This document shows, piece after piece, positions 3,762 through 60,008 of a stretch of 64,000 bases of DNA; position 1 is the stretch's first letter, and each line of letters starts with the position of its first letter. Both the position numbers and the translations under genes were made by a program. The notes beneath the pieces were generated by a model. It did no database searches, had not been told where the DNA came from, and worked only from the letters and a program-made list of their open reading frames with translations. The stretch is from positions 195,078-259,077 of the forward strand of contig JACROC010000005.1 of the NCBI GenBank assembly GCA_016214655.1. Reading direction: 5' to 3'. Origin of the DNA: Candidatus Harrisonbacteria bacterium (GTDB taxonomy: Bacteria > Patescibacteriota > Minisyncoccia > UBA6257 > 02-FULL-45-10c).

Positions 3762-3969
3762 ATGTAAGGAAAAGGACTGAGGGTTGGTAATAGATGTATT
3801 CCGTTGAGTTGTACATGCCGCCGTCAGCGCCGCGGACCATCGTCTCGCGAATACGAAGCTCGGCGTCGTTATCCAGCTCCAAAATCAAAATGCTTTCTTT
3901 GGAAACGATTCCAACGATTCTTCTGCCAATCAGCAGCCTCGCCACTTCCTCGTTTATTTTGTTATGCAC
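3760..3969 (-). CDS. small hypothetical protein (69 aa)
   Basis: The ORF ends exactly in an intrinsic terminator hairpin. No family was recognised. Confidence 0.4.
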   Translation of the reverse strand: MHNKINEEVARLLIGRRIVGIVSKESILILELDNDAELRIRETMVRGADGGMYNSTEYIYYQPSVLFLT

Positions 3970-4028
3970 CCCTCTCCTCTTTTATTTAAGAAAACTGCTG
4001 AATTAAAGATAAATTAAAAACAGCCATA

Positions 4029-5777
4029 TTACAAGAGGATAACAACAGCTCTTATTCTCCGTACGCCAGATCCAACAGCTTCCTGTTTCAAAATCTTAAA
4101 TTTTCCGATTTTAAAAGTATTGGCAACATGCGGTCCGCCGCAAAATTCTTTGCTAAAATCACCCATAAAATAAACTTTTACTTTTTCAGGATATTTTTGT
4201 TTAAAGAAATAAAGCGCGCCGGTTTTTTTAGCTTCTTCAATCGGCAACTCTTTATAATAAACTGGCAAGTCTTTTTGGATTGCCTCATTGACTAAATCTT
4301 CTATCTTTTTAACTTCTTCGTCGGTGAGTTTGCGGCTAAACGAGAAATCAAACCTGGTTCGCTCTGCAGTTATATCCGAACCCATCTGATGCACATCTAG
4401 TCCAAGCACATTGCGTAGCGCCTGTTGAAGCAAGTGAGTCGCGGTATGGAGCCGGGTGACTTTTTCCACTTCTTCGGACGTAGAAGCTTTGAGTTCTCCG
4501 GTATCTAAAATAAGACCGTGACCGCCAAATTTTTTCTCCGAACCGGCACGAGAAACCTCCTGATGCTTTTTAAACTCCGCATCAAAATTATCTTTATTTA
4601 AACCTCTTACCTTGGCCGGCACTAATTCACCCAGCAATTCCCACGGCAATCCGAAAGTTTCATAAATATAAAATGCGTCTTTGGCAGTAATAACGTCGTA
4701 TTTTTCGATCTCTTTTATTCCCAGGGCGAGCGCTTTTTCGAATTTTGATTTTTCTTCCATCATTACTGCGAAAATTTCTTTCGTATTTTTCACTTCCGGA
4801 TACGCATCGCCAAAAGTTTCTCTGACAATATCCACAGCCAAAGCAAAAAGCTCCGCGTGAATATCATATTTAATTTCATAAACCATTATCCGGCGAAGTA
4901 ATCTCCTCAAGATATAACCGACTTCCTTATTAGACGGCCGGACGCCGTCGGCAATTAAAAATATTGATGCCCGCAGATGATCCGCCAAAACTCTCAATAC
5001 TTTATCTTCTAGTCCGGATTTTACTTCCTGAATTTTTGAAACAAGCGGATGAAAAAGATCGGTTTCAAATACATTATCAACACCCCGAAGCATTGTGGCT
5101 AAGCGCTCCAGGCCCATGCCGGTATCCACACCAGGCGTTTCCAATTTCCGCAAACTCTTGTCCGAATTCTGATAATATTCGTTAAAGACTAAATTCCAAA
5201 TCTCCACGCCGTCAACATAAATTTCCGTTGTCGGCCCGCAGGGACCTTCATTGCCGGTTGGTCCCCAAAAATTATCCGCCCGGCCATGCTTTTTAATTTT
5301 CTCCTTCGGCAAGCCGATTTCTTCATGCCAAATTCTGAATGATTCTTTATCAAATGGAATCGGGACTTGCCCTGGGCCTGCCGAAAGGTCGCCGCCAAAA
5401 ACCGTAACGGTAACCCGTTCGCGGTCAATTCCTAATTCATTTATGACAAAATCATGCGCCCACCGGATCGCTTCTTTTTTAAAATAACCGCCAAAACTGA
5501 AATTTCCAAGCATCTCAAAAAATGTCAGGTGAGTTTTATCGCCTACCTCATCAATATCCGAAGTCCGAAAACACTTCTGCACCGAAGCGGTATTTTTACT
5601 GCCGAAATCACGAATTGGATCGGCCTTACCAACATAATACGGCTTGAACTGTTGCATACCCGCAGTTGTCAGAAGCACCGAAGGATCGTCCGGAGTCAAA
5701 GAAGAAGACGGCACTACGGCGTGCCTGCGCTCTCGGAAAAAATCTGAAAATTTTTTACGGATTTCGCTAGATTCCAT
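4029..5777 (-). CDS. alaS: alanyl-tRNA synthetase, short form (catalytic plus editing core, no C-Ala domain)
   Basis: The N-terminus has class II AlaS motifs (FKPYY, SVQKCFRTSDIDEVGDKTHLTFFEMLGNFSFGGYFK). The C-terminus is an editing-domain-like HTATHLL...CGGPHV segment. At 582 aa it is far shorter than canonical AlaS of about 870 aa. Confidence 0.85.
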   Translation of the reverse strand: MESSEIRKKFSDFFRERRHAVVPSSSLTPDDPSVLLTTAGMQQFKPYYVGKADPIRDFGSKNTASVQKCFRTSDIDEVGDKTHLTFFEMLGNFSFGGYFKKEAIRWAHDFVINELGIDRERVTVTVFGGDLSAGPGQVPIPFDKESFRIWHEEIGLPKEKIKKHGRADNFWGPTGNEGPCGPTTEIYVDGVEIWNLVFNEYYQNSDKSLRKLETPGVDTGMGLERLATMLRGVDNVFETDLFHPLVSKIQEVKSGLEDKVLRVLADHLRASIFLIADGVRPSNKEVGYILRRLLRRIMVYEIKYDIHAELFALAVDIVRETFGDAYPEVKNTKEIFAVMMEEKSKFEKALALGIKEIEKYDVITAKDAFYIYETFGLPWELLGELVPAKVRGLNKDNFDAEFKKHQEVSRAGSEKKFGGHGLILDTGELKASTSEEVEKVTRLHTATHLLQQALRNVLGLDVHQMGSDITAERTRFDFSFSRKLTDEEVKKIEDLVNEAIQKDLPVYYKELPIEEAKKTGALYFFKQKYPEKVKVYFMGDFSKEFCGGPHVANTFKIGKFKILKQEAVGSGVRRIRAVVILL

Positions 5778-5807
5778 ATTTACTTAAAAATTTTAACATG
5801 ACGCCAA

Positions 5808-5843
5808 AAATAAAAAAAGCGCCGGTCCTCAATCGGCGCTTGT
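5808..5843 (-). terminator. intrinsic terminator (aagcgccg...cggcgctt stem plus U-run on minus strand)
   Basis: An 8-bp GC-rich inverted repeat lies immediately after the stop of the 5848..7404 ORF. An A-run on the plus strand gives a U-run on minus. Confidence 0.5.
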
Positions 5844-5847
5844 CGTC

Positions 5848-7404
5848 TTACTGCAATACTCTCTGTATCAACGGCTGAGAGGCGCGCTGAGCTTCTGTTT
5901 CCTCCGCTAATTTACGCAGTAAATTCTTCAAAGATTGTTCGGTATCTAGGAGTAAAGCTTTGACGTCTTTTAAAACCGCCATTATTGAATCGGGTTTGGC
6001 ATTTTTAGTTTTTAAATCCGAAAGATTCGCCAGAGATTTTTCAGCTGAAGTTAAAAGTTTGAAAAGCTCCGGCGAATTTTCCGAAGTCAAACCGTTTCTC
6101 CCCGAATCATATGAAATCCGGTCAAAATCTGTTTTTAAATTCCTGAGCAAATTTTCTAAATTGCCATAATCAATCAATTGCCGCAAGGCATTTCTTGCCG
6201 CGGCCGCCGCAATACTAGCCTGACCAAAGGCATTTGCGTACTGCGAATTACCAAAAGAGTCTTTTGCCTGCTTAAGATTAAATTCACTCAAAGAAAACAG
6301 GGCATCGGTGGATTGGCTTCTTAAATTCGCTTCAACGATCTTTTCTTTAAGCAATCTGGCCAAATTTTCCACATCATTCATCAATCTTTCCGCTTCTGAT
6401 TTACCGATGCTCCGACTGCGGGAAGCCAACTCTAAAATTAGTTGGCGAATCACACCTAAATCATTCTTTAGTTCGGAATCAGCCAAATACTCCCTTACTT
6501 CGTCCAAAACTTTTATTCTCCGCCAGGCATCTCCGGGTAATTGCTGAAATACCGCCGGCAAAGTAGAACTTAGATTTTCAGCGCCGATTTTCATTTGTAT
6601 TTTTAAGAACAAATCTTCTTTAAGCGCCAAAACTACCTCCCGCGCTTTGGAATTGTAAGGAGTTTTATCCTCTACCCGATCCAACCGCTCCAAGGCGCGG
6701 AATTCTTTAAATACTCCTCCCCCGCCTTGATCTACAACAGCTAAAAACCGTGAACGGAAACTCTCCGGGGAATCAAGATATGCCAAAGTATCTGCGATAA
6801 TTTCGCTAATACGGCTTTGTAAAGAATCCAGTTTTTCTTTATTTCGCGCATCACTTTTTAATTTCAAAACATCGAATAAACTCAAGTGTTTTAAGCTGCG
6901 ATCCAAAAGTTTATTCAATAATCTATCAACACCAGCATTGGAACTGTCCTCTTTAATTGACTTTAAAAGAGCCGGCAGACGATCTAAATTTTCTTTATAC
7001 ATTTCAAGCGCCTTAGCCAAAGCAACTTCGTTATCAGGTAAAATTTCTTCCAACCGCTTCAACTCTGCAGCTTTTTCATTTAAGAAGTCTAACTCTAAAT
7101 CAGCTTTTTGAACCGGGTTTATCTTAAATACCCTTTGAGTAGACCGCCGCCAATTCTTCATGAAATAAAAAGGATTAGACTGTAAAAGCCCCGGATCTTC
7201 TATCCCCAGATCTTCTAATTTGACAGCCTCTTGGGCAACCAGCCTCAAAACCAGGCTATTTTCAGGATTAATCTCTCCTTGAGCCAAACTGACCGCCGGA
7301 ACCAAAACAAGGCTGAAAATGGCGGTTTTTATGGCTATTTTACATATAAATTGTCGTTTACCCATGTTTCCAATATAAAAACCCTTATTTAACAGGGTCC
7401 TCAC
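5848..7404 (-). CDS. secreted alpha-helical hypothetical protein (signal peptide)
   Basis: The 518-aa ORF has an N-terminal hydrophobic signal-like segment (AIFSLVLVPAVSLAQG). The rest is Leu/Glu/Lys-rich and helical. No catalytic motif was seen. Confidence 0.55.
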   Translation of the reverse strand: MRTLLNKGFYIGNMGKRQFICKIAIKTAIFSLVLVPAVSLAQGEINPENSLVLRLVAQEAVKLEDLGIEDPGLLQSNPFYFMKNWRRSTQRVFKINPVQKADLELDFLNEKAAELKRLEEILPDNEVALAKALEMYKENLDRLPALLKSIKEDSSNAGVDRLLNKLLDRSLKHLSLFDVLKLKSDARNKEKLDSLQSRISEIIADTLAYLDSPESFRSRFLAVVDQGGGGVFKEFRALERLDRVEDKTPYNSKAREVVLALKEDLFLKIQMKIGAENLSSTLPAVFQQLPGDAWRRIKVLDEVREYLADSELKNDLGVIRQLILELASRSRSIGKSEAERLMNDVENLARLLKEKIVEANLRSQSTDALFSLSEFNLKQAKDSFGNSQYANAFGQASIAAAAARNALRQLIDYGNLENLLRNLKTDFDRISYDSGRNGLTSENSPELFKLLTSAEKSLANLSDLKTKNAKPDSIMAVLKDVKALLLDTEQSLKNLLRKLAEETEAQRASQPLIQRVLQ

Positions 7405-7475
7405 ATATATTTTCCCGATTAATTAACTCCTTATTTACTTACAATTAGTATAACATATCAGATACTAAAAAGCCA

Positions 7476-7930
7476 GTAAAAAGAAAGCCCCCTCAACTAC
7501 CAGAAGAGGGGGCGGCGAGCGCCTCGTTTGTCGCTGGTCTCTGATAACCAGCCTAGTCCCGTCGGACTGAGACACTCTAAGGAGCTTATTTGGTTAGATC
7601 GCGCGTACTCCCTATGTCAACCACGCGCGACCAGGAACGCTTACCAGGTGGTCAGAAGACCTGGCGTATCTGTGAGCTGTCTCCCGTGCCCTGCACGAGA
7701 TAACAACCAGGATGCGCTCCACGGTAATACGGATGGGTTTTTCGCTAGGTGGCAACCCAGCTAAAGCAACCTCACGCGTTGCTTTCCTCCCACCGCCCCA
7801 TAATGATCCCTCTTTGAGAAACCACGCTGGAACCAGATTCCAAACTGATGCCTCGGTCCGGTGCCAATGAAGGTACTACAGTCTAGCCGGGGCGCCCCTT
7901 GCGGAGCCTTCCGTCAGCTTCGACAAATTA
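7476..7930 (-). ncRNA. candidate structured ncRNA (class unresolved; size fits RNase P RNA or another large RNA), or a long structured rpoD 3' UTR
   Basis: This 455-nt ORF-free block is GC-rich (about 55-58%) against an approximately 40% GC background. It has many local hairpins, for example CCAGGUCUUCUGACCACCUGG and CGCGCGUGG...ACGCGCG. It ends with a minus-strand intrinsic terminator (cccccuc-N11-gaggggg then CUUUCUUUUU, plus 7476..7508). No tRNA-like T-arm is present, which argues against tmRNA. Confidence 0.35.
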
Positions 7931-7955
7931 AATATAGCATATAATCCAATTCTTG

Positions 7956-9194
7956 TCAATACCCCTCAATTGTGTGCGATTTGCCGTGCTGACGGATGCG
8001 GCTGAGAGCCTTCGCTTCAATCTGGCGGATGCGCTCGCGGGTGACTGCAAACTCCTTTCCTACTTCTTCCAAAGTATGGGTAATTCCATCCTCCAGACCA
8101 AAACGCATCTGAAGAATTTTCTGCTCTCTCGGAGTCAGGTCAACTAAAATTTCTTTGATCCTTTCCCGAAGTAAAGTTTGGGATGCTACCTGCGAGGGAG
8201 TAAGGCTGTGAGTATCTTCAATAAATTCGGACAAAGTTGATTCGTCGTCATCTTCGCCAACCGGCGCCTCAAGCGAAACCACTTCCTGGGAAATTTTCTG
8301 GATATGATGAACCTTCTCCACCGAAATATTCATTTCAATGGCAATTTCTTCCGGCAAAGGATCACGCCCCAATTCCTGCATTAAATGCCGCTTAGCTTGG
8401 GTATATTTAGAAATAGTTTCCACCATATGGACCGGAATACGGATAGTTCTGGATTGGTCAGCAAGAGCGCGGGTAATAGCCTGGCGAATCCACCAGGTTG
8501 CATAAGTAGAAAATTTAAAACCCCGGCGGTAATCAAATTTTGTAACTGCCCTGGCAAGGCCGATATTGCCCTCCTGAACAAGATCTAAAATACTGAGATG
8601 CGGAGTCCTGTTGACGTAGCGCTTGGCAATAGAAACTACCAGCCGGAGATTGGCTTTAATAAATTGCTGGCGGGCCTCTTCATCCCCCTTCTCAATTTTT
8701 TTAGCCAATTCCCGTTCCTGTTCCTGTTTCAAAAGCTCAGTCTTGCCGATCTCTTTAAGATATTGCTGGACTGAATCCGGCAGCTCTCCCTCAAAATGAG
8801 TCGCTTTTTCTAATTCCTTTTTGCTGATTTCATCTTTAGGAAGCTCGATTAACTGGCTGGTTTCCAAAACCTTAATATTAGCGGTCTCCAGCCGGTTATA
8901 AATTTCCTCCAAAAAAGCGACGTCGTCTTCCACGCGCGGAAAATAATGGAGCACTTCCGTATCCGTCACAAAACCACGGCTCTTTCCGCGGTCAATCAAT
9001 TCATTTAAAGCCTCCTCTTCAGCCATAGCTTTCTTCTCGCCCCCCGCTACTTTCTTCGCAGCCACGTTCTTTAAAATTTTCTTTATCTTTTTGATTTTCT
9101 TAGCCTTCTTGGTTTTTTTAACCTTCTTAAGTTTCTTTTTCAGCTTTTTAATTTTTGGCTTTTTTATTTTTTTATTTTTCTTCTTTTTGCTCAT
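7956..9194 (-). CDS. rpoD: RNA polymerase sigma-70 factor RpoD
   Basis: Region 2.4/3 reads [15 protein letters not shown] and region 4 reads [28 protein letters not shown]. The N-terminus is extremely Lys-rich ([15 protein letters not shown]...). The ORF track starts at 9275 and overlaps dnaG. The MSKKKK start at 9194 gives a 14-nt gap after the dnaG stop and is preferred. Confidence 0.9.
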
Positions 9195-9207
9195 AAAATA
9201 AGACAAT

Positions 9208-10950
9208 TTATGCATTATGTAACTCTTTAGATATATTAGCAAACTCCCGCATCGCCGCCTGGAGCTTATTCTCATCGCCCTCTCCCTCCAGTATTTTAAT
9301 TAAATCGCTGATTTCCTGCCTTTTATCCTTTAAATATTCAACCCTTAATTCCCGTAAAAGGTTCCTCATTTCTTTCTTCAGATTTTCAACGTCAAAATCC
9401 TGATTTTCAAAGCTAAAACGCAAGCTAATAGAATTCATGAAATCTCCCAAATCTGATGATACATTCACGCCTTTATTTAAAAGTAAGTCCCGATAGATAG
9501 TAAGGTATTGTTCTGGGAAATATTTAAGGTGGTCTTCAATGGTCTGCATATCATTTTGCAGATGCAGCATCACCCCCAGAAGCCTTTGCGAAATCAATTC
9601 CCGGCGAGACAATTTTTGGCTTACACTAACTGCCGGTGCGCCCGCCGGAACTATAGCCTCGGCCACGCCAGCCGGCGTCAATATTTCCATTTCTTCAGCC
9701 AAAACCCGCTCATCGATTCTAGCAATTTTAGAGAGCTGATTAAGCCAATGGCTCCGCTCAATCGGACTGGAAAGATTTTTAATCTTGGCGAGCACTACCC
9801 GCAGATTCTGCTTTTTAGCTTTAATGTCAGTGGACGCATTATTAAAATATTTATAAAAATAATAATCCATTGCAGACTTTGCGCCGCCAAGCAAATCTTT
9901 GATTTTACCGGGCTGTTCTCTGACTACATCTGCCGGATCTTTAAATTTTGCATCTTCAATTACCAAAAGTTTCACCGCGAAATCATGCGCTCCCGCCAAA
10001 TCAATACTTCTCTCCGCGGCTATCTGCCCTGCCAGATCAGCATCAAAACTTAACACCACCTCATCAGCTAATCTCCGCAAAACCGCCAAATGATCTTGGG
10101 TCAGAGCAGTCCCGGAGGTAGCTACAGCGTTTTTAATTCCATCCTGCCAGACCATCAGAAAATCCATCTGTCCCTCAACTAAAACTGCAGTTTTAGCCTC
10201 ACGAATATCACTCTTAGTTCTATGAAATCCATATAAAATTTTAGATTTCTGAAAAACCGGGGTTTCCGGACTATTTACATATTTGCCAACGTTAGGATTA
10301 TTATTTCCCGGCAGGATTCTGCCGGTGAATGCAACTACTTTGCCAAAATGATTATAAATCGGAAACATTATGCGGCCACGGAACCTATCCCAATAAGTTC
10401 CCCGCTCGGTTTTAATTGCCAAGCCGGCTTTTTCAATATCCAAAATATTATAGCCAAGTTTTAAAAGATGGTGCGTCAGTATATCAGAACCGTCCGCAGC
10501 AAAACCGATTTCAAACTCCTGAACAGTTTCATCTTTTAATCCCCGCTCCCTCAAATAATTTCTAACTAAGTCGGACTTCACAAGATTAGATCTAAAGAAA
10601 TTTTTAGCCGCCTCCATTACGGCATATAAAGAATTATAAGATTTAAAATCACGATTGCCGGAGGTCTTAATGTCCACGCCGGCTTTTTCCGCCAAAACCT
10701 TTAAAGCATCATAAAATTCCAAATTCTCATATTTCATCAAAAACTTTATGATGTCACCGCCTTCATTGCAGGCGCCAAAACAATGCCAGGATTGCCGTTC
10801 CGGCGAAACCATAAAAGACGGAGTTTTCTCTTTATGGAAGGGGCAGCACGCTTTCATATTTTTACCTGCCGGCTTCAGCTGGACATACGGCCGCAAAAAA
10901 TCCACAATATCTAACTTTTCCTTTATAAGTTGGGCTGTATCAGAAGACAT
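9208..10950 (-). CDS. dnaG: DNA primase DnaG
   Basis: It has a CHC2 zinc finger ([26 protein letters not shown]) and a TOPRIM motif ([10 protein letters not shown]). It is adjacent to rpoD, as in the macromolecular synthesis operon. Confidence 0.9.
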
Positions 10951-29506: not shown

Positions 29507-29701
29507 TTCCGTTTCTCCTTTTTATCCGTTGCCTGACCGCCGTCCGTATTTGGCAGCCATAGCCAGAAAACCTCAATATTTAAGGGCTTTTGGCTATGGC
29601 CATCTTACAAATTACTAAATATAGTATAGCACTATTAGAGCTATTTTGTCAAGTTCGCCGTAGATAAACTACAATTATTTTTAACAACTAATATGAGGAA
29701 A

Positions 29702-29799
29702 TAAAATAAGGTTTTTGGATATTCAGGCTGGCGGTGGGATCGATTTCGCTCCCTTTAGGGAGCTTTATAAATATAGGCGATATCCAAAAACCTTATTTT
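29702..29799. repeat. 20-bp perfect inverted repeat (aaaataaggtttttggatat / atatccaaaaaccttatttt) enclosing a 58-nt loop with an inner hairpin (gctccc-ttta-gggagc)
   Basis: It lies between the DGR target gene start and the stop of the upstream nucleotidyltransferase gene, whose stop it overlaps. Confidence 0.6.
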
Positions 29800-30551
29800 G
29801 TTTCCGAATCCCACTCTTTAATGGCTTTTTCCCAACGCTGTAAATTCCCACAGTCATGCCACTTCCCTTTTGATTTATAAGCCGCAAGTTTTCGTTCGGC
29901 GGCAAGCTTCGGAAAAAGGTCCTTTTCAATCATTAAAAATTTTTCACCGCTTTGTATTTTGTCGCTTAAATGTTCACGCACTTTCGGGTCAATTAAATAA
30001 AGACCCGAAGAAATAAAATTTGTCGGCGGATTTTCCGGTTTTTCCAAAAAACTGTGGATGTGATCGCCATCGCAAATTAAAACACCATACTCCTGCGGAT
30101 TTGATACTTCCACTGCCGCAATAGTTGCCAATCCTCCGACCTTGCGATGGTGGGCCGCCATTTCAGTCAAATTTACCTCTTTTAATTCATCGCCATTAGT
30201 TAAGAAAAATGGCTCACTGCCAGTCCAGGTATGTAGCTTATGTGCCCAATAGCCAAGCGTACCCATTGGCTCCTCCTCAACCATCAAATTTACCCACACG
30301 CCGCCAAGGTCATTCTGCCAACGCCGCAACCACCAAGAAAAATCTTCAAAATCACCTTGCCTGACCGTAATAGCAACTTCTTCTATGCCATGCTTTTTAA
30401 ACATCTCGATCAAATAATTTATGATCGGTTTTTTATTGACAGTTAAAAGCGGTTTTGGAGTTTCCAAGGTCACCGGATAAAGACGAGCGCCTTTCCCGCC
30501 GGCTAAAATTATTGCTTTGCGAACTTTCTGCATATTATTAAAATACAACAA
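29793..30551 (-). CDS. sugar-phosphate nucleotidyltransferase (RfbA/GlmU-N-like)
   Basis: The N-terminal signature KAIILAGGKGARLYPVTLETPKPLL is that of the NTP_transferase family. Confidence 0.75.
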   Translation of the reverse strand: MLYFNNMQKVRKAIILAGGKGARLYPVTLETPKPLLTVNKKPIINYLIEMFKKHGIEEVAITVRQGDFEDFSWWLRRWQNDLGGVWVNLMVEEEPMGTLGYWAHKLHTWTGSEPFFLTNGDELKEVNLTEMAAHHRKVGGLATIAAVEVSNPQEYGVLICDGDHIHSFLEKPENPPTNFISSGLYLIDPKVREHLSDKIQSGEKFLMIEKDLFPKLAAERKLAAYKSKGKWHDCGNLQRWEKAIKEWDSETK

Positions 30552-30751
30552 ATTTTAAGTAATAAAAGTCATAGAGCTAATTTTGCTAATATCCGTCGCT
30601 TTCTTCCGTGCGGCAATTACGGAACCCTGAAATACTTGGATTTTTGCGAAGCAAAAAATTTCAGGGTGAGGCATAGGCGCTCCGATCCGCAGGAGATCGA
30701 AGACGCCGGTGCCGGTAGGAAGAAAGCAATGGATATAAATAAAAATTAAAT

Positions 30752-31090
30752 AAAAAAAGGCCGGGGAAACCGATGTCGCGTTACAGGCGACTGGTTTCCC
30801 CGGCGGGTAAAACGTTGGCAACGCCCCATCTTAAGCCGTGTATAGGCAGGATGGATAGCGTTGCCAAAATTGGCGGTCGGAAAATGCACTTGGCACTTCA
30901 GGGGGTCGAAGTTTACCTTGGCCCCCTTACTATGCACGCCTTTTGCTCAATTGCCCCCACTTTAGAATAAAGGGGCGGGAGTCGGATGGTTGGCGACCTG
31001 GGAGGATTTCTGCGATCGCCGCGCTAAGGCTCCCATTGAGCAGTCAGGTACCCGCGAAATTATTTGCCTTTCGTGGGTTGCATTTTCCGA
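30752..31090 (-). ncRNA. candidate structured ncRNA or long structured leader (class unresolved)
   Basis: This ORF-free block is about 55% GC. A 14-nt long-range complementarity (GGUCGGAAAAUGCA at 31075..31062 with UGCAUUUUCCGACC at 30889..30876) encloses about 170 nt. It ends in a strong minus-strand terminator (GCCGGGGAAACC...GGUUUCCCCGGC then U7, plus 30752..30804). No T-arm is present. Confidence 0.35.
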
Positions 31091-31317
31091 CCAAATCAAA
31101 GAACGAACTGTAAATATACAATAGCATACTATAAAATTTTGTCAATAGTGACAAATCTTAGAATGGGTTATATAATTTACAATAAATTTGAATAAAGTAC
31201 CCCGTATAAATTTTACTCTTGGATATAGTAAAGATAAAATTTATACGGGATGCTCATTTTTGCAGCCAATCGGGCTGCGTTAGTAAATTAACTTGCCCTC
31301 TTGGGCAAAAATGGCAC

Positions 31318-31895: not shown

Positions 31896-33521
31896 TTATT
31901 CTTGTTCACCCATATCCTCAAAATCATCGTCTAATGTGTCGGCAGAACTTAAGGCCTTTGCCAAAGCGGATTTTAAATCAGTAATATCCACCTTTTTCTT
32001 TTCTTGCTTCGGCACTTCCGGCATAGCTGGTTTTGGGATTACCGGTACAACCGGTTTTGGCATTGTCGGAACGGTCTCCTTTGGCGCCACCCCAGAAAAA
32101 GGTTTCGGTGGGCGAGACGATAAAGATTTGCGCCGCTCCGGACTGCCGACAAAAGAATCAATCGGCTTTAAAACTTTGATCAACGGCAGTTCGCCTTTTC
32201 TGGATATCTTTTCTTCTGCCGCCCTTTCTCCCCCCGCCATCCATTCCCCGGCTATTTTTTCTTCAACAATTTTTTTCGGGGTGCTATATTCTCTCCGACT
32301 ATTTTCTATAATTACATCTTTAAAATTTTGATCCGGTATTTTATAAGGAGAAATACCAGTTGCCGAGAACGGCCGGGAAGAAATGCCGTCAATTAAAAGT
32401 TTGATATAAAAATTATGTTTTGGGAGATTTACGAAGTCATTGGCCATAAAATCCGGCTGAAATTCCTTTTCCAAAAATTCCGCGTCTTCAGCGCCGATTC
32501 TATAAGAAACTATCGTCCCGACATTGCCAAAAATAGCATCCCGGACTTTAGTATTGGTGTCATGAACCAATTGCCGGATATATTGGTGGGCCAGAATAAG
32601 ACAAAGGCGATATTTTCTGGCTTCAGATAAAATATTAGCAAAAGAATCAGTAGCGAAATTTTGAAACTCATCAACATAAAGATAAAAGTCTTTGCGGGCG
32701 CTCTCCGGAATATCCACCCGGGACATGGCTGCCAGCTGAAGCTTGGTAATAATCAGAGCGCCTAAAAGTGCTGAATTATCCTCTCCAATTTTTCCTTTAG
32801 ATAAATTTACAATCAAAATTTTTCCCTCGTCCATTATTTTCCGCATATCAATAGAAGACCGGGACTGGCCCAAAATATTACGTATGAGCGGATTAGTAAC
32901 AAACTGTCCAACTTTGTTTTGAATTGCGGCGGTGGCCTCAGTTTCAAATTTCTGGCTGTATTTTGCAAATTCATTTACCCAAAAACCTTTTACTACCGGA
33001 TCTTTTAAGCTATCCACAACCTTTTTACGATAATCTTTGTCATTGAGCATACGCATAATCCCAAGCAAAGTAGAGCCGGGATACTCAAGTAAAGCAAGTA
33101 GGGTATTATTTAAAATGTATTCCATCCGAGCAGACCAAAGATCAACCCAAATTTTTTTAAATACACCCATGATTCCGGATGCTACTAAATGCCGGAATTC
33201 AGTCCCAACCTGCTCTAAAGGATTAAAAGCAATCGGATAATTCATGTCTGAAGGATCTATATAAACCACATCTTTAATACGCTCTGCCGGAACAAAATCC
33301 AGCAATTTTTCAGCAAATTCGCCGTGCGGATCCACTACTCCAACACCTCGGCCAGAAAGAATGTCGGCAATCACCATATTCTCTAAAAAAGTCGTTTTCC
33401 CCATTCCAGTTTTCCCGACCACATACATATGGCGACGGCGGTCATCCATTTTAATACCAAATTCTATCTGCCGGTTACGGAAGTTGATTATACCAAAGGG
33501 GGTTATTTCATCTTTAATCAT
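31896..33521 (-). CDS. FtsK/TraG/VirD4-like P-loop ATPase (type IV secretion/DNA-translocation coupling-protein family)
   Basis: Walker A reads YVVGKTGMGKTT and Walker B reads FYLYVDEFQNF. It is 541 aa with a Pro/Lys-rich acidic C-terminal tail. It is co-oriented, with a 22-nt gap, with a membrane-protein gene. Confidence 0.65.
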   Translation of the reverse strand: MIKDEITPFGIINFRNRQIEFGIKMDDRRRHMYVVGKTGMGKTTFLENMVIADILSGRGVGVVDPHGEFAEKLLDFVPAERIKDVVYIDPSDMNYPIAFNPLEQVGTEFRHLVASGIMGVFKKIWVDLWSARMEYILNNTLLALLEYPGSTLLGIMRMLNDKDYRKKVVDSLKDPVVKGFWVNEFAKYSQKFETEATAAIQNKVGQFVTNPLIRNILGQSRSSIDMRKIMDEGKILIVNLSKGKIGEDNSALLGALIITKLQLAAMSRVDIPESARKDFYLYVDEFQNFATDSFANILSEARKYRLCLILAHQYIRQLVHDTNTKVRDAIFGNVGTIVSYRIGAEDAEFLEKEFQPDFMANDFVNLPKHNFYIKLLIDGISSRPFSATGISPYKIPDQNFKDVIIENSRREYSTPKKIVEEKIAGEWMAGGERAAEEKISRKGELPLIKVLKPIDSFVGSPERRKSLSSRPPKPFSGVAPKETVPTMPKPVVPVIPKPAMPEVPKQEKKKVDITDLKSALAKALSSADTLDDDFEDMGEQE

Positions 33522-33543
33522 ACGCTAGTATATTGATATCGCA

Positions 33544-34836
33544 TTATCTAATTGGTAAATTTCCAGGCGGTTCGCCTTTCCTAGTTTCTAAACGGCGCAA
33601 CAGCGGCGCCTCAACAGTAACCAAAGGAAAATGGAAGATGGTTGCCAATTCTTCGGTATTCAAAATAGAAAATTTCGGCGGAAACCAGCGCAATTTATAC
33701 ATATCGTAAATCAAACGCTTGCGATAATGCAGTTTTTGCCTGCGAAACCAGCTTTTGGTGGTTAATTTTTTGCTGGTAACAAAAGTAACGGTTTCCGAAA
33801 TTAAACCCAATTTATTCATGTCTTGAGTACTGAATTGTTTAAAAGCGCCCTGAACCGCGGCTACATTAGCCGGTGAAAAACTGTCTTGCCGGTCAATGTA
33901 AATAAAGCGAATTGCGGTTTCAAACCCAAGCTTAGAAATTTTATTTTCTACCCCCTCCAAGATATTTTTTTCTCCGGGTGATAAAGCGAGTATCTTAAAT
34001 TTTTCTTCTTTTTTTTCACCCCCCGGCCAAGTTGGAACTTCTGTCGGAGCAATTGTTAAATTCCTTAAAAAAATAAAAAATTCTTTGATGAGTGATTCAA
34101 GAATGCCGGCCGGCTTCTCTTTTTTCCGCTGCATTATTTTATCCCTGATTTCTTCACCTTCCTTTTTCCAATAATCAGAGACTGGGCGAATCAAATATTG
34201 CAGCCAAATCGCCTCCCCTTCTTTAAGGCGGGACATAACCTCCGTAATAGCTGCTAACGGATCCAAACGCTGTTCCTCAACCTGGGCCTCGAAAAATTCA
34301 TAAGTCCTGATAGGATACGGGCTTTCTTTCGATAAAACATAGTCATTGCCCCACAAGTCATAAACCTCGTTGGGCAGCACGTCCGGCAAAAGGCCGGTAT
34401 AATCTTCCGCTTCAGCAAATTCCGCGTCCGGATATTCCGAATAAATCGCCGATTCTATAAGATTACGGTGGCGTTTTGTACAACGGACATAAAAATGGAC
34501 GCCTCCGGCATAACCCACCAGCTCAAAAGTAAACCAAGACAAATCAGTACCGCTCAAATACCTGTCCTCAAAGGTCATTTCAGTGGCATAAACCGCATGG
34601 AGCGCGGAAAAAATATTTTCCATTGCTTTGGGAGTTTTCAAGATATTTCTGGGAATCTTGATCTCCAGCATCACCCACTCAATACTTTTTTTCCACATCC
34701 GGTTCAGCCCCCAGACCCAAAAACCCTTCCAGACGAAAAATAAGCCGAGGGGCAAAATTGCCCACCAGCTGATTGAAATTACCCGCCAAATATTTTTAAA
34801 AATCTCCAGCTCAAAAGCCAATAGATCAATGCCCAT
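33544..34836 (-). CDS. membrane protein partner of the TraG-like ATPase
   Basis: The 430-aa ORF has two N-terminal TM helices (WWAILPLGLFFVW / GFWVWGL) followed by a large soluble domain. It is in an operon with the ATPase. Confidence 0.55.
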   Translation of the reverse strand: MGIDLLAFELEIFKNIWRVISISWWAILPLGLFFVWKGFWVWGLNRMWKKSIEWVMLEIKIPRNILKTPKAMENIFSALHAVYATEMTFEDRYLSGTDLSWFTFELVGYAGGVHFYVRCTKRHRNLIESAIYSEYPDAEFAEAEDYTGLLPDVLPNEVYDLWGNDYVLSKESPYPIRTYEFFEAQVEEQRLDPLAAITEVMSRLKEGEAIWLQYLIRPVSDYWKKEGEEIRDKIMQRKKEKPAGILESLIKEFFIFLRNLTIAPTEVPTWPGGEKKEEKFKILALSPGEKNILEGVENKISKLGFETAIRFIYIDRQDSFSPANVAAVQGAFKQFSTQDMNKLGLISETVTFVTSKKLTTKSWFRRQKLHYRKRLIYDMYKLRWFPPKFSILNTEELATIFHFPLVTVEAPLLRRLETRKGEPPGNLPIR

Positions 34837-34897
34837 ATCAGTGACCTCTAATTAAATATCTTTAATAAATTGAAATCTTGATTTTGTATCAAGTTCC

Positions 34898-34980
34898 AGG
34901 CACGACGACGAAATTGTGGTGATAACCACATTGTTGCTCGTCGGAAAGGTAGGTAACCCTACGATTTCCTCCTCGCGCCT
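34898..34980. repeat. structured intergenic repeat family, copy 1 (AGGCaCGACGACGAAAt - hairpin gtggtg-at-aaccac - GTTGCTCGTCG ... CTCGCGCCT)
   Basis: It shares boxes with copies at 39646 and 59709. The hairpin stem differs by compensatory changes. Confidence 0.6.
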
Positions 34981-35117
34981 TGTATTTATTATAAAATTTC
35001 TCTTATCAATTAGCAAAGATATTTAATTAGAGGTCACAAATTTTAAAACGTTATTATTAAAAGAACAAAGTGAATAAAAACTACTAGATTCTAGATATTA
35101 GATCCTAAATTCTGCAA

Positions 35118-36176
35118 TTAAACCAAGACAGTATACTTGCCGTCTTCTAAGCGCTTAAAGAATTTGCGGTTTTGCAAATTAATCATCACCGTATTCTTCT
35201 TGAGCATTCTTTCTTTCAGAACTAATCCCAATAACTCCTTCGGAGATAGCGGTCCATGCTGTTTCAGAATTCTTCCCATAACTTCTTTAGCTGTTCCCGG
35301 CATAAGCCCGAATTCCTGCAAACCATACATTCCGCGGCCAACTAAAACAAATCTTTGATCTTTAATTAGTTCATTATGAACAGTTTGTGGATGGGCTAAT
35401 TTCCGAGAATCTTTACGGATTCTATTGATTAATTTCGCAATATCCTGGAAATGCAGCGGCTTTCTTTCTTTCTTTAAAACTATATGCGCCCAATCTCTCA
35501 CGGTTTTCGGATTAACTTCCGGCCAATGGGAAAGGCCAAAATCTCCAAATTCATTAACATGGAAATCCTTAGAAATAGAGATAAAATTTAAGGCAACTAA
35601 ATCTTTCAAATTATGCGGTCCGGTTGCGTCTTTTAAAAGTAAATCGATATTGCCGTGAGTGACTACCTCACCTTTTTTCACTTCCATTAACTTAACCAGC
35701 TTAGCGACAAAACCGGTTGCCTTTTTTTGGTCATCGCCGGATAAATACCAATATGAATAATTATCGTTCCCCTCGGATACAAACTTCGGATCACCGGCCA
35801 CTTCCAGCAAAAAACGGACTTTATTTCCAAGATATTGAGTATTGGGATCGCCGACCATCATCTTAAGATCAGTCAAAAGCAAAGCTTCCCGGCGAACTCC
35901 CCCGATATTCTTTAAATGAGTTTTAACCAGATTAACGAAAGATCCATCGGTTTTAGCCAAAAGAACTCTGACTTCCTGAAGAGCTCCGGCCTCTATCTGG
36001 CGCACTCGCTCGCGGGTAATAGAATTTTTCTCGCCGATTTCCGCTAAAGTTCTGACCTCGCCATCTTTCAAACCATAACGCCCTTCCAGCACTTCGCGCT
36101 GTCTTTGGTCCAAACTAGCCAACACGCCGGAAACCAATTTAGAAACATTTATATTCATTGGTTTATATAATACCAC
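35118..36176 (-). CDS. sigma-70 region-4 HTH plus HARE-HTH domain protein
   Basis: The N-terminal region 4 reads RQREVLEGRYGL...TLAEIGEKNSITRERVRQIEAGAL. The C-terminal domain resembles the HARE-HTH of the RpoE delta subunit (HFQDIAKLINRI...DQRFVLVGRGMYGL). Confidence 0.55.
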   Translation of the reverse strand: MVLYKPMNINVSKLVSGVLASLDQRQREVLEGRYGLKDGEVRTLAEIGEKNSITRERVRQIEAGALQEVRVLLAKTDGSFVNLVKTHLKNIGGVRREALLLTDLKMMVGDPNTQYLGNKVRFLLEVAGDPKFVSEGNDNYSYWYLSGDDQKKATGFVAKLVKLMEVKKGEVVTHGNIDLLLKDATGPHNLKDLVALNFISISKDFHVNEFGDFGLSHWPEVNPKTVRDWAHIVLKKERKPLHFQDIAKLINRIRKDSRKLAHPQTVHNELIKDQRFVLVGRGMYGLQEFGLMPGTAKEVMGRILKQHGPLSPKELLGLVLKERMLKKNTVMINLQNRKFFKRLEDGKYTVLV

Positions 36177-39498: not shown

Positions 39499-39645
39499 CC
39501 AACCTCCGGATATTTAAAGTGCTTATAAGTAATATAAATGGCCGCGGATTTATTTACAAGTTAAAGAAATTATATTATAATTTTATAAGCTTTCTCTCCT
39601 CATATTAATCTCCGACGCGACACTGCTTATTTTATTATCAGCGCC

Positions 39646-39784
39646 AGGCGCGACGACGAAACCGTGGTCTAGACCACATTGGGGAGGAGCAACGCAGCGA
39701 TGTAATAAAATAAGCATGTCCCAAAGGGTTGTTGCCAAAATGAAATATCTCTTCGTTATTCCTCCTCGCCGTGGTTAAAACCAC
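39646..39784. repeat. structured intergenic repeat family, copy 2 (AGGCGCGACGACGAAAC - hairpin gtggtc-ta-gaccac - GGAGGAGCAACGCAG ... CCTCCTCGCC - hairpin gtggtt-aa-aaccac)
   Basis: It shares the 5' box and the GGAGGAGCAACGCAG box with copy 3, and a hairpin of the same class. Confidence 0.6.
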
Positions 39785-39864
39785 CAGCTTGTCGGAAATG
39801 CCTTGATCTAATTCATTTTGGCTAACAACGCGTCTAGAGCTAATATTATGAGGAGAGAAAGCAT

Positions 39865-39935
39865 GCCCCCATAGCTTAGTGGTAAAGCAGCTGCCTTTTA
39901 AGCAGTTGACCTTGGTCCGATTCCAAGTGGGGGCA
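39865..39935 (+). tRNA. tRNA-Lys (anticodon UUU)
   Basis: The hand-folded 71-nt cloverleaf has acceptor GCCCCCA/UGGGGGC, D-arm GCUU-AGUGGUA-AAGC, anticodon loop CUUUUAA and T-arm CUUGG-UCCGAUU-CCAAG. No CCA is encoded. Confidence 0.85.
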
Positions 39936-40018
39936 CAAAAAATAATCTACAAAACAAAAGGCCCGGGCCCGCCTTTTGAGTCTCACTCGCGACCGGCGCC
40001 GTCGCCAGTCGCTAAGTG

Positions 40019-54163: not shown

Positions 54164-54300
54164 AAATTCTAAATCCTAATATCTAAATTCTAAATAAATT
54201 CAAAATGCTAAAATTCTAATAATCCAAATTTTTTAAGTTTTTATATTTGAATTTAATCATTATTTAGGATTTCGTGCTTAGTGCTTAGAAATTATTCTAA
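54164..54300. repeat. AT-rich short-repeat array upstream of murF ((ATTCTAAAT)-like repeats ... ttaggatttcgtgcttagtgcttag)
   Basis: The sequence is aaattctaaatcctaatatctaaattctaaataaattcaaaatgctaaaattctaataatcc ... with gcttagtgcttag inverted motifs. Confidence 0.5.
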
Positions 54301-55923
54301 ATGGTCCGGTGCCACATTATAATAATTTAAAATAAATTCCGCTAACTCTCTGAACGCCGGGACTACGGTCAATCCGGCCAGCGGAGCGCCTTGCGGCTTA
54401 TCTATTCTTATTAAAATTGTAAATCTCGCATCGGAAGCCGACGCAAAACCTATATAAGTATGGATATATTCTTCAGTATAACCGCCATGCTTAAAATCCG
54501 GAATTTGGGCAGTTCCAGTCTTACCAGCCACATCGAATTTAGGTATTTGCGCAATGGTTGCTTTTTTCACTGCGGAAATCATCATTTTAGTCGCTTCTTG
54601 AGCCGCTTCTTCAGAAATCACCCTCCTCATAACCTCCGGCTTTTCATCTCTCAATAAGTGAGGCTTCATTAACAATCCGCCATTAGCAATAGCCGAAAAG
54701 GCATTTATCATTTGAAGCGGCGTAACCGAAACTCCCTGTCCAAATGCCGCTGTAGCGAAATTAACATCCCGATAAGTTGACTTCAAATTGCCCAAACTGC
54801 CGCTTAACTCTCCGGGCAGAGCAATGCCAGTTTTCTGGCCAAATCCGAATTTCACTAAATAATTATAAAAAATGTCTTTGCCAATTAATTTCTGCGCATA
54901 AGCCGCTCCGGTATTGATAGACTGCTCGATCACCTCTGTCATAGTTATTTTGCCATGCGCTTTATTATCCCAATTTTTTATAGTCCGCCCGTCCAGCATC
55001 AAAGATCCGCTATCATAGAAAGTAGTGTCTGGTGTCAATTTATGGCTATCCAATCCGGCAGACATTGTAATTACCTTCATCACCGAGCCAGGCTCATAAA
55101 TAGCTTGAATTACCGGGTTCAAAAAAGATTCAACTTTATTTTCTGAATAATTATTCGGGTCAAAATTGGGATAAGCCCCTAAAGCCAAAATTTTCCCAGT
55201 CTTCGGTTCCTGGACTAAAAACATTCCCTTCTCGGCCTTATATTTTTTAATCAATTCTATTAGTATCTCTTCAGCTCGAGCCTGAATGTTCGGATCAATA
55301 GTCAAATAAAGATTTTCTCCGGCCACCGGGTCAATAATACGATCATCATCCAAGCGTCCGGCTTCGCCATCCAATTGATCATTATAATATAATTCCAATC
55401 CATAACGCCCCCGAATGGCCCGGTCTTCAGCGTTTGGACCGGTAAAACCTATTAATTGAGCCGCTAAATTTTTAAACGGATAAAAACGGTCATTTTCCGT
55501 ATCGATATAAACACCGCGAAAATTTAACTCGCGTACAGAATTTACTTGTTCTCCGGACGCCTTGCGCAATAATAATTCATAGGGGTCATTGGATTTACCT
55601 AAAGATGCCAGTAATTTTTCTTTATCAAGATTCAGGATATTACCCAAAGATTCTGCGGCCCATTGCGGATTTTCCAATTCTTTGGGCACCGCAAAAATTA
55701 CCGGGTATTCCTTAGTTATGGCCGCTGGAACGAAATTATTATTCCGATCAGAAAAATAAATACTGCCCCTTTGCGGCTCCAAAAAACCGGCCAACCTATG
55801 TTGAGAGGCAGCCCGAGCAGAATAATAGCCGCCCTTTTCAATTTGTAAATTATAAATATTAAAAATTAAGGATGAGTATAAAAAGGTGAAAAATAATATT
55901 ACTAAAAAAAGACGGTAGCGCAT
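54292..55923 (-). CDS. ftsI: penicillin-binding protein 2 / FtsI-type peptidoglycan D,D-transpeptidase
   Basis: It has an N-terminal TM segment, an SxxK motif (GSVMKVIT), a KTG motif (AGKTGTAQ) and a dimerisation domain. Confidence 0.85.
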   Translation of the reverse strand: MRYRLFLVILFFTFLYSSLIFNIYNLQIEKGGYYSARAASQHRLAGFLEPQRGSIYFSDRNNNFVPAAITKEYPVIFAVPKELENPQWAAESLGNILNLDKEKLLASLGKSNDPYELLLRKASGEQVNSVRELNFRGVYIDTENDRFYPFKNLAAQLIGFTGPNAEDRAIRGRYGLELYYNDQLDGEAGRLDDDRIIDPVAGENLYLTIDPNIQARAEEILIELIKKYKAEKGMFLVQEPKTGKILALGAYPNFDPNNYSENKVESFLNPVIQAIYEPGSVMKVITMSAGLDSHKLTPDTTFYDSGSLMLDGRTIKNWDNKAHGKITMTEVIEQSINTGAAYAQKLIGKDIFYNYLVKFGFGQKTGIALPGELSGSLGNLKSTYRDVNFATAAFGQGVSVTPLQMINAFSAIANGGLLMKPHLLRDEKPEVMRRVISEEAAQEATKMMISAVKKATIAQIPKFDVAGKTGTAQIPDFKHGGYTEEYIHTYIGFASASDARFTILIRIDKPQGAPLAGLTVVPAFRELAEFILNYYNVAPDHLE

Positions 55924-56124
55924 AATTCCGAAAATAGTATTGTCCGCCTATCAATTGGCAAGCGGTTTATGTTCATGAACCATAATATATTATTTTCCCT
56001 AATTGATAAGGGGAATTTTGATCTAGCCTCAAGGCTGGCTGACGAGTTTGTGGTTGAATACCACAGCGAGGAAGCATAACGCAGAAGATAGACAAAATTT
56101 CCTTACCCTTCGGGAATCTTGATT

Positions 56125-56430
56125 TCAATTTAGGGAAGATAACATGTTATGGGTCATATAATCTGGATTCTTATCTGAAACAAGATTTTGCTTATCCACA
56201 ATAGAAGAAAGGTTTCGGGAATCTAAGATTTGATACAGCTGATTGCGCAGATCGGCGTTGGTAACTTCCAATTTTTGTACAACTTTTTCTTGCAAACTAA
56301 TTTTGTATTTCAAACTGACATTAGAATTGTAAAAACGGATATTAAAAATGGCTAACATCAAAATAAGAACGGCAATATATAAAAATTCGTTGGTATAATA
56401 TCGATTTTTTGTTGGTTCAATGATTGTCAT
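56125..56430 (-). CDS. ftsL: FtsL-like cell-division protein (single TM plus coiled coil)
   Basis: The 101-aa ORF has one TM segment (FLYIAVLILMLAIF). Its position between rsmH and ftsI is as in dcw clusters. Confidence 0.5.
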   Translation of the reverse strand: MTIIEPTKNRYYTNEFLYIAVLILMLAIFNIRFYNSNVSLKYKISLQEKVVQKLEVTNADLRNQLYQILDSRNLSSIVDKQNLVSDKNPDYMTHNMLSSLN

Positions 56431-59562: not shown

Positions 59563-59708
59563 ATTACTTAACTAACTATTAAATTAAAATAGACCTTTCG
59601 GTCCATAGACAACCACAATAAAAGTGGTAACTTCCTCGACGGGACTTAACAGTACCTTTTGTACAAATGCAGCGATATATTGGAAGCTCACAAATTAAGA
59701 TGAGATCA

Positions 59709-59863
59709 AGGCGCGACGACGAAACTGTGGTTTTAACCACGTTGAGGAGGAGCAACGCAGAGATCACTTAATTTTAAGCTTCTCTACGAGCCAGAATCTT
59801 TTTTCTTCTGGCGTTGTTGCTCGTCGCTAGTGTATCTAAAGATACACTTCGCTTCTCGCGCCT
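59709..59863. repeat. structured intergenic repeat family, copy 3 (AGGCGCGACGACGAAAC - hairpin gtggtt-tt-aaccac - GAGGAGGAGCAACGCAG ... CGTTGTTGCTCGTCGC - hairpin gtgtatc-taaa-gatacac - CTCGCGCCT), in the rplJ upstream region
   Basis: It shares the 5' box, the hairpin class and the GGAGGAGCAACGCAG box with copy 2. It shares the GTTGCTCGTCG and CTCGCGCCT boxes with copy 1. The 5' AGGCGCG is complementary to the 3' CGCGCCT. Confidence 0.6.
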
Positions 59864-60008
59864 AGCCAGAGAGAAAAAATCTTTCTGGCCAATAATCGTT
59901 GAATTTATATAAAAGGTACACTTGCCCGTTGTCTACGGATTAATAACTAGTATAGCAGGCTTATAAAATATGTCAACAAAAAACCGCCCAAGGGGGCGGC
60001 TTCGCCTC

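Follow-up and report, generated by a model that had tools for sequence, protein, structure and literature searches.

A probable family of foldback mobile elements with two structured arms in Candidate Phyla Radiation genomes

Introduction

What kind of element recurs, as a short box followed at once by a hairpin, in the intergenic spacers of a Candidatus Harrisonbacteria (Parcubacteria) bacterium? The copies lie in a 64,000-nucleotide (nt) stretch of DNA (metagenome-assembled genome GCA_016214655.1, contig JACROC010000005.1, positions 195,078 to 259,077 of the forward strand), referred to below as the window, and a preliminary description made from its letters had left three options: a family like repetitive extragenic palindromic (REP) elements or the miniature inverted-repeat transposable elements (MITEs), a shared leader or regulatory RNA, or a recombination site. 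The copies probably belong to a previously uncatalogued family of small, non-coding, structured, MITE-like foldback mobile elements that inhabit the intergenic spacers of bacteria in the Candidate Phyla Radiation (CPR). This answer draws on a two-armed architecture and its covariation, dispersal in many copies, presence and absence at orthologous sites, enrichment of TA at the boundaries and insertion into ribosomal RNA (rRNA) genes, each of which is directly observed. Genomes of the CPR are tiny, streamlined and usually called repeat-poor, yet their rRNA genes are full of insertions, many of them unexplained.

Copies in the window

The core box AGGCRCGACGACGAAA (16 nt) occurs on the + strand, with no mismatch, at 34898, 39646 and 59709, where chance would supply about 0.8 matches even with three mismatches tolerated. 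The hairpin pattern GTGGTNNNNACCAC has four matches (34916, 39664, 39771 and 59727) against none expected. Counts so far above chance establish that the observed elements are real, and they stand at the three sites where they had first been noticed. The shared boxes are likewise where they had been reported: GGAGGAGCAACGCAG is exact in copies 2 and 3 (39683 and 59746), and GTTGCTCGTCG and CTCGCGCCT are both found in copies 1 and 3. The three copies also lie upstream of minus-strand gene starts at 62, 148 and 147 nt, within the 60-150 nt first estimated; the gene beside copy 2, then called hypothetical, encodes an Nfu_N-domain protein.

Other parts of the preliminary description need revision. 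Its coordinates are right for the cores and too narrow for the elements: when whole spacers are folded, each core is wrapped in further layers of inverted repeat, and the full elements measure about 200-275 nt (197 nt for copy 1; Table 1). Three copies are not the full set, since a fourth, degenerate copy with one arm was overlooked; it is detected both by a profile of full-length homologues and by the covariance model described below. The stem covariation claimed among the three copies holds for the sixth pair only (C-G in copy 2 and U-A in copy 3, with a non-pairing G.A in copy 1). The other five pairs, GTGGT/ACCAC, are invariant, and true covariation appears only with homologues from elsewhere.

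Homologues and host range

A metagenome scan in which the boxes were fixed and the hairpin was left free returned at least 120 loci (given below as L plus a number) from groundwater, sediment and soil. The family is thus present in >120 metagenome loci, in Patescibacteria/CPR hosts of 32-55% GC, and a scan of a genome collection added five further loci and found the motif in metagenome-assembled genomes of Saccharibacteria. Over all loci host GC ranges from 32 to 72%; the high-GC loci bear a one-arm form, and one locus (L036) belongs to Polyangiaceae, Myxococcota. Scanned viral contigs gave no matches. About 5 kb of sequence was taken around each locus, with simple calls of open reading frames (ORFs). 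The search pattern demanded the arm-A boxes, so the invariance of these boxes is partly a product of the search; arm B lay outside this selection and therefore reveals the positions that are truly constrained.

With Rfam 15 at gathering thresholds, the window copies and 10 canonical loci match only tRNAs and rRNAs, and at E<=10 only chance-level matches appear; the models cover riboswitches, leaders including L10, ribozymes, introns and large ornate RNAs. A weak RtT match (E=4.6) was judged to be chance. In the library that was searched, no paper mentions the boxes or MITEs in CPR.

The one-arm version is about 190 nt long and occurs on soil contigs of 60-72% GC (L022, L036, L044, L052, L055, L059, L065, L078, L091, L105, L109 and L124), with terminal repeats of its own, CTAGAGCACCGAAC.../...GTTCGGTGCTCTAG. 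A C.A mismatch recurs in its apical stem; read on the opposite strand, this would be a G.U.

Architecture and covariation

A canonical copy measures about 270 nt, and its four parts are the outer stem, arm A, a short hairpin at the centre, and arm B. The arms are homologous, about 104 nt each, and lie on opposite strands; arm B is a diverged version of arm A. Both arms form long hairpins, in which an enclosing stem leads to a rigidly conserved segment and then to a freely covarying apical hairpin. Two conserved boxes, 5'-GGCGCGACGACGAAA and UUGAGGAGGAGCAAC-3', face each other within the arm, and single Watson-Crick pairs alternate there with GA/AG dinucleotides. The outer inverted repeat is often flanked by TA, and the central hairpin is often C(UUCG)G.

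A covariance model trained on 81 arm-A sequences only finds an arm B directly beside almost every arm A, on the opposite strand, the window copies included; in total, covariance modelling yields 186 arm units in 677 kb. Since the arm-A model recovers the adjacent, opposite-strand arm B, the element is an inverted doublet of one unit of about 104 nt.

RNAalifold, left unguided, pairs the two boxes of one arm with each other through isolated pairs. Across the 81 arm-A sequences 88.8% of cells are paired, a value that 0 of 500 shuffles reach (72% after shuffling) and that falls to 30-45% if the partners are slid. Hairpin 1 has dozens of compensatory variants among homologues, and the apical hairpin is paired in 95.7% of arm-A cells with compensatory changes at five of its five pairs. 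When both arms are taken together (150 arms, 131 distinct), the paired share of cells is 90.4%, and compensatory changes occur at 22 of the 23 pairs. More than 100 homologues strongly support the earlier argument for selection on the structure, as against recent duplication alone.

Inside the boxes, the isolated pairs switch between C-G (99) and G-C (28) next to GA and AG dinucleotides that do not change, and the pair R5:Y12, between R of the 5' box and Y of the 3' box, appears as GC (97), AU (17) and GU (11). The Watson-Crick pairs within the boxes are established by this covariation. The boxes as a whole probably form a helix with three tandem sheared G.A pairs, a geometry predicted from the sequence context.

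Two other folds were rejected. In a "rod" model the boxes of arm A would pair with those of arm B; on inspection these partners lack covariation (L018, L046 and L086 are examples), and it is the intra-arm pairs that covary. A hammerhead-like reading of CUGAUGA/CGAAAC has stems that do not fit on inspection and receives no support from Rfam.

The termini of copy 1 are perfect 20-nt inverted repeats (34841-34860 and 35018-35037). Relative to L061, a full-length element of the same subfamily, copy 1 is internally deleted by about 72 nt; what it lacks is arm A's 3' strand, the hairpin at the centre and the beginning of arm B. The arm A remnant scores only 19.3 bits with the covariance model.

Arm A can also carry nested insertions. 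L013 (about 915-960) contains a 42-nt perfect GC-rich palindrome, CCTGCCTGCCGCCTGCCTGCCGGCAGGCAGGCGGCAGGCAGG, and L007 (about 3810-3850) contains a 38-nt hairpin-like piece that is missing from the near-identical copy in L001.

Dispersal and insertion sites

Four copies on one 867-kb contig (L018, L037, L084 and L086) are 82-92% identical to one another, compared with 17-36% for their flanks. They have common ends, GGAGTGCAGGATTCRAACC...GGTTYGAATCCTGCACTCC, and homology stops at these repeats.

Copy 3 provides a filled site that can be set against an empty one. In the closest relative found (L128, L10 protein 89% identical), the ClpX-rplJ spacer is 152 nt long, has its leader hairpin intact and contains no element. 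This hairpin (AATCCGTAGACAACGGGCA...AAGTCCCGTCGAGG; uninterrupted as ...GACAACGGGCAATCAATAAGTCCCGTCGAGG... in L128) is unbroken in three orthologues (L128, L129 and L131), and in the window it is split by copy 3 (268 nt), which sits in its apical loop. The hairpin is probably the L10 autoregulatory leader; the Rfam L10_leader model gives no match to it. On the minus strand, a promoter-like TTGACA (59971-59976) and TATACT (59949-59954), 17 nt apart, lie upstream of the leader. L129 (72% identical) carries a copy of a different subfamily at another position in the spacer, directly past the -10 box. Its junctions read GCTA/GGAGAG...CTCTCC/TAATAAATCC, with TA on both sides (TAATAAA on the right), where relatives have one TA. 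In L128 and L131, whose ClpX-rplJ spacers are empty, the covariance model finds no match.

Copy 4 lies between an ftsL-like ORF (56125-56430) and a PBP/ftsI gene (54292-55923), at the ftsL-ftsI junction of the mraZ-rsmH-ftsL-ftsI-murE (dcw) cluster, where the spacer of relatives is 7-10 nt. A search for an orthologue of the copy-2 spacer yielded a single relative, L133 (66% identical), in which the locus is rearranged and offers no filled/empty pair. L133 has a second copy of the tRNA-Lys 3' end (GATTCCAAGTGGGGGCACAAAAATAAAAA), about 180 nt downstream of the tRNA and upstream of the Nfu homologue (96-167 and about 345-375), a duplication that resembles the att-site scar of an integrated element.

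The boundaries are enriched in TA. At the edge of the outer palindrome TA occurs on the left in 33 of 59 elements and on the right in 36 of 59, compared with a background of 25% per side, and 22 of the 59 have it on both boundaries, compared with about 6% expected.

The surroundings of the copies have little in common. The 143 adjacent ORFs represent 134 Pfam families of unrelated housekeeping genes. Orientation with respect to neighbouring genes is unbiased (18 same, 15 opposite), and elements occur between convergent genes (12) as well as between divergent ones (9). Some abut tRNA ends to the nucleotide (L030, L013 and L081), and only 8 of 144 have a tRNA within 150 nt. Nor was any conserved context of promoters or terminators seen around the copies.

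Several of these observations fit a MITE: a length of 197-275 nt, no coding capacity, four copies in a 64-kb window and four on one 867-kb contig, shared terminal repeats at which homology ends, and orthologous sites both filled and empty. Among the options first offered, the REP/MITE-like one gains support from the empty site, the second insertion point, the many copies with unrelated flanks and the TA-enriched ends.

Copies in rRNA operons

The 23S rRNA gene of L047, which spans 6 kb (3925-9938), contains an element as well as a group I intron (6429-6804). The element there comes from another organism and belongs to the same subfamily as copy 3 of the window, with which it shares 91% identity over 262 nt. 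The same 23S site is filled in L047 and L035 and empty in L027 and L108. There are at least seven rRNA-operon sites in all, at least six in 23S (L047, L035, L050, L057, L032, L072, L026, L027, L062 and L108) plus one in a 16S leader (L011); the 23S insertion positions, estimated from the flanking rRNA sequence, are roughly 215, 270, 440, 840, 1600 and 2400. The 23S copies have a long closing stem at the insertion within the gene. In every rRNA-operon copy the strand bearing AGGCGCGACGACGAAA is antisense to the rRNA.

Many insertions that lack an ORF and are not introns have been catalogued in CPR rRNA genes (Tsurumaki et al., 2024; PMC11270868). Some were suggested to be intervening sequences (IVSs) of the RNase III type and were left uncharacterised there (PMC11270868). 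The present family can account for part of these uncharacterised ORF-less insertions.

Strand-specific constraint

Wobble-type mismatches bear on which strand of each arm folds. Globally there is no net strand bias (117 G.T and 116 A.C). Arm A has 78 G.T against 32 A.C on the + (box) strand, and arm B has 58 G.T against 36 A.C on the opposite strand, in both cases as counts that are not phylogenetically independent. The arm-wise excess of G.T indicates that each arm folds best on the strand that carries its purine-rich boxes, and a transcript of either direction begins with a well-formed arm. UUCG is the commonest central loop, with 16 cases compared with 5-6 for its complement. Taken together, the G.U tolerance of each arm, the UUCG loop and the uniform orientation in rRNA point to a single-stranded constraint, probably at the RNA level.

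Several points weigh against a MITE-like element. This single-stranded constraint is left unexplained by a purely selfish DNA model. The best-conserved part is internal and not terminal, unlike that of ordinary MITEs, and it is nearly identical across phyla and over 32-72% GC, though the search pattern itself demanded the arm-A boxes. TA..TA is itself palindromic and may belong to the terminal repeat, and copies 1 and 2 of the window lack TA. Finally, no transposase or autonomous partner with matching ends came to light: with about 5 kb considered per locus, the top 25 Pfam families listed for the neighbour ORFs (143) and those listed for the window ORFs include no transposase.

Even so, a MITE-like foldback element remains the probable identity of the family. 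In the proposed mechanism, some transposase acting in trans would move the element and duplicate TA. In single-stranded nucleic acid, the conserved purine-rich helices may be recognised by a protein, which could be the transposase or a host factor. Selection would maintain self-folding of the whole element, such that its transcript forms a closed, inert domain, and an inert fold would be tolerated in operons, in the loops of leader hairpins and of 23S rRNA, and against tRNA ends. Within rRNA the element would act as an intervening sequence that RNase III probably trims.

Alternative explanations

A bolder proposal is unlikely: the two-armed element would be a new class of mobile structured RNA, whose tandem-G.A helix is catalytic or recruits a protein and excises the element from transcripts of either strand. 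If true, such a mobile RNA would explain a share of the ORF-less insertions in CPR 16S and 23S genes and the conservation across phyla.

A related reading, also rather unlikely, takes the element as a mobile RNA-processing domain, like an intron or IVS, in which removal from host transcripts, or neutral folding within them, is what selection favours. The GA-rich arms would recruit an RNase or ligase, or would be catalytic themselves, and spread through DNA would still be allowed; this reading and DNA mobility are not mutually exclusive. At least seven rRNA-operon sites with one orientation throughout fit such a domain, as do the preference for UUCG in the central loop and the strand-specific tolerance of G.U in each arm. 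The hairpin ribozyme, with two loop-bearing arms on a four-way junction, is a possible parallel in layout. The wealth of uncharacterised ORF-less insertions in CPR rRNA genes (PMC11270868) points the same way. Most copies, however, are intergenic and have no preferred orientation with respect to genes, none was found cleanly interrupting a protein-coding gene, and none matches the ribozyme or intron models of Rfam. Moreover, the strand that folds best differs between the two arms, and a given transcript therefore holds only one optimal arm.

Decidedly improbable is a system that works through single-stranded DNA, either REP/REPIN-like or of another kind, in which an HUH/Y1 enzyme (RAYT- or IS200/IS605-like) would read each arm as a hairpin, or the arm would serve as a recombination site; the symmetry of the element would reflect two ends. 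An inverted doublet of hairpin units is REPIN-like, and hairpins whose structure is conserved while their sequence is free, with each arm optimised on its own strand, also count in its favour. So does the stability of sheared G.A pairs in DNA. The units, on the other hand, are about 104 nt long, and the 20-40-nt units, GTAG or CGTC head and RAYT of REP/REPIN sequences do not describe them; neither Y1 nor RAYT occurs among the top 25 Pfam families listed for neighbour genes. HUH enzymes leave no target duplication, and the TA-enriched flanks suit TA-duplicating enzymes better. A preference for UUCG loops would have no rationale in DNA. As for attC-like recombination sites, no GTTRRRY core is visible in the termini inspected (core AGGCGCG...CGCGCCT, outer GGAG...CTCC), for which no dedicated search was run, and the neighbours are housekeeping genes.

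It is very doubtful that the copies are independent genes for structured non-coding RNAs with a role in trans, such as that of a protein sponge or scaffold, and have become paralogues by duplication. The very strong covariation, the deeply conserved core and an ornate fold of about 270 nt that matches no Rfam family would be expected of such genes. They would not be expected to vary in presence and absence, to use different insertion points within one spacer, or to lie within an operon, in a leader loop, against tRNAs and inside 23S rRNA genes. Random orientation, the lack of a conserved promoter or terminator context and the existence of degenerate copies (internally deleted, one-armed or with nested insertions) likewise argue against them.

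That the element is a shared cis-regulatory leader or riboswitch of downstream minus-strand genes, the second option of the preliminary description, can hardly be right: all four window copies do lie upstream of minus-strand genes in one orientation, but across loci the neighbours fall into 134 unrelated Pfam families, all four intergenic geometries occur with no orientation bias, copies reside within an operon and in 23S rRNA genes, and the rplJ spacer of close relatives lacks the element where the true leader, the hairpin split by copy 3, is conserved. The element itself is not a leader. The RNA-processing, single-stranded-DNA and non-coding-RNA readings may each hold as a further layer.

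Features of the window and further observations

Copy 2 ends 2 nt from tRNA-Lys (39865-39936, + strand). The remaining coordinates are collected in Table 1.

Table 1. Elements in the window, their parts and the hairpin that hosts copy 3
Feature	Positions	Strand	Contents	Basis
Copy 1, whole	34841-35037 (197 nt)	.		inverted repeat and fold
Copy 1, arm A remnant	34898-34929	+	box AGGCACGACGACGAAA 34898-34913; hairpin 1 GTGGTGATAACCAC 34916-34929	
Copy 1, arm B, intact unit	34903-35006	-	GTTGCTCGTCGG 34933-34944; hairpin 2 34949-34962; CCTCCTCGCGCCT 34968-34980	arm-A-only model, 51.2 bits, E=4e-14
Copy 2, whole	39589-39862 (274 nt)	.		fold and inverted repeat
Copy 2, outer stem	39589-39607 with 39844-39862			
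Copy 2, arm A	39620-39723	+	enclosing stem; box 39646-39663; hairpin 39664-39677; 3' strand TTGGGGAGGAGCAACGCAG 39679-39697	covariance model, 81.6 bits
Copy 2, central hairpin	39720-39728		CCCAAAGGG, directly after arm A	
Copy 2, arm B	39725-39828	-		covariance model, 44.1 bits, E about 1e-11
Copy 2, second GTGGTTAAAACCAC hairpin	39771-39784		within arm B	
Copy 3, whole	59652-59919 (268 nt)	.		fold and orthologue comparison
Copy 3, terminal repeats	59652-59668; 59903-59919		GTACCTTTTGTACAAAT; ATTTATATAAAAGGTAC	
Copy 3, arm A	59683-59786	+	box 59709-59726; hairpin 59727-59740; TTGAGGAGGAGCAACGCAG 59742-59760	covariance model, 98.7 bits
Copy 3, central hairpin	59782-59790			
Copy 3, arm B	59786-59889	-	GTTGCTCGTCGC 59816-59827; hairpin 2 59829-59848; CGCTTCTCGCGCCT 59850-59863	covariance model, 46.5 bits, E about 1e-12
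Copy 4, degenerate, one arm	55995-56137 (arm 56006-56110)	+	AGGCTGGCTGACGAGTTT; hairpin GTGGTTGAATACCAC; AGCGAGGAAGCATAACGCAG; CCCTTCGGG	nhmmer, E=9e-8; covariance model, 44.5 bits
Host rplJ leader hairpin, outside the element	59637-59941	-	halves 59920-59941 (AATCCGTAGACAACGGGCAAGT) and 59637-59651 (TGTTAAGTCCCGTCG)	

Copy 1 (region 31896-36176) lies between a gene with sigma-70 region 4 and HARE-HTH domains and a hypothetical gene, which is followed by a gene for a TraG/VirD4-type coupling protein. Homologues of the sigma region 4 domain adjoin elements in L115 and L123 too, possibly by coincidence.

The terminal repeat of the commonest subfamily, ...GGTTCGAATCCTGCNCTCCTA (for example in L002, L033 and L086), resembles a tRNA's T-loop and acceptor 3' end. 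An identity as tRNA or tmRNA, suggested by such repeats and by a tag-like GACGAAAACUAC, was rejected: ARAGORN finds no gene, and proximity to tRNAs is limited to the 8 of 144 elements given above.

Three further stretches of the window are structured. A non-coding, GC-rich (54%) stretch of 350 nt at 30755-31105 folds very stably on either strand (z about -8 to -10); its minus strand has a closing stem, GGUCGGAAAAUGCA/UGCAUUUUCCGACC, and after it a terminator-like hairpin and U-run. It has no Rfam match at E<=1 and may be an unrecognised structured RNA gene, e.g., a divergent RNase P-like or other RNA. Long spacer inverted repeats occur at 29697-29805 and 30581-30744 (26 nt at 96% and 35 nt at 77% complementarity, respectively); they fold stably (z about -7 to -9), and the element profile gives no match to them.

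Significance and comparison with known systems

The family joins two sides of CPR genome biology, with one element found in spacers, in a ribosomal-protein leader, in the dcw operon and in 23S rRNA genes. A non-canonical helix common to elements of CPR and Myxococcota suggests a conserved recognition partner. The family is also an annotation hazard, as it mimics leaders, riboswitches and small-RNA genes and inflates the length of rRNA genes; a covariance model of it would tidy the annotation of CPR genomes.

Among known systems, the ERIC/IRU and YPAL sequences of enterobacteria are alike in several ways. They are imperfect palindromes, 100-170 nt or more in length, and lie in transcribed intergenic DNA; multi-copy and non-coding, they form RNA hairpins, vary in size through internal insertions and deletions, and can either affect the flanking mRNA or leave it neutral (compare the review PMC3184786). 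The present family has no sequence similarity to them, and it differs in having two separately folding arms with non-canonical G.A helices and in spanning CPR classes, another phylum and rRNA genes.

Neisseria has the Correia elements (NEMIS/CREE) and Streptococcus pneumoniae has RUP, both small and non-autonomous, with terminal inverted repeats and a TA target duplication. They insert beside genes and are co-transcribed with them, and Correia hairpins are RNase III substrates. The present family shares the small size, the probable lack of autonomy and the terminal inverted repeats, and it may share the duplication of TA, as the boundaries suggest. Correia and RUP are confined to a genus and are conserved mostly at their termini, whereas here the termini vary by subfamily and the internal arms are conserved.

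REPINs, too, are inverted doublets of hairpin units that make a larger hairpin, are long-lived and conserve structure more than sequence. The present units are about five times longer, their flanks are enriched in TA, and no RAYT is found among the top neighbour families listed; membership among the REPINs is unsupported.

Finally, the IVSs of 23S rRNA and the ORF-less insertions of CPR rRNA genes resemble the 23S copies, being long stem-loops in 23S helices that are sporadic and lack an ORF. Classical IVSs are not known to be dispersed through intergenic regions as well, whereas here the same subfamily resides in 23S genes and upstream of rplJ. The family is of a known kind, that of structured dispersed repeats like ERIC, Correia, RUP and REPIN, and it is unusual in its two-arm design, its covariation-supported G.A helix, its conservation over CPR classes and as far as Myxococcota and its orientation-specific residence in rRNA.

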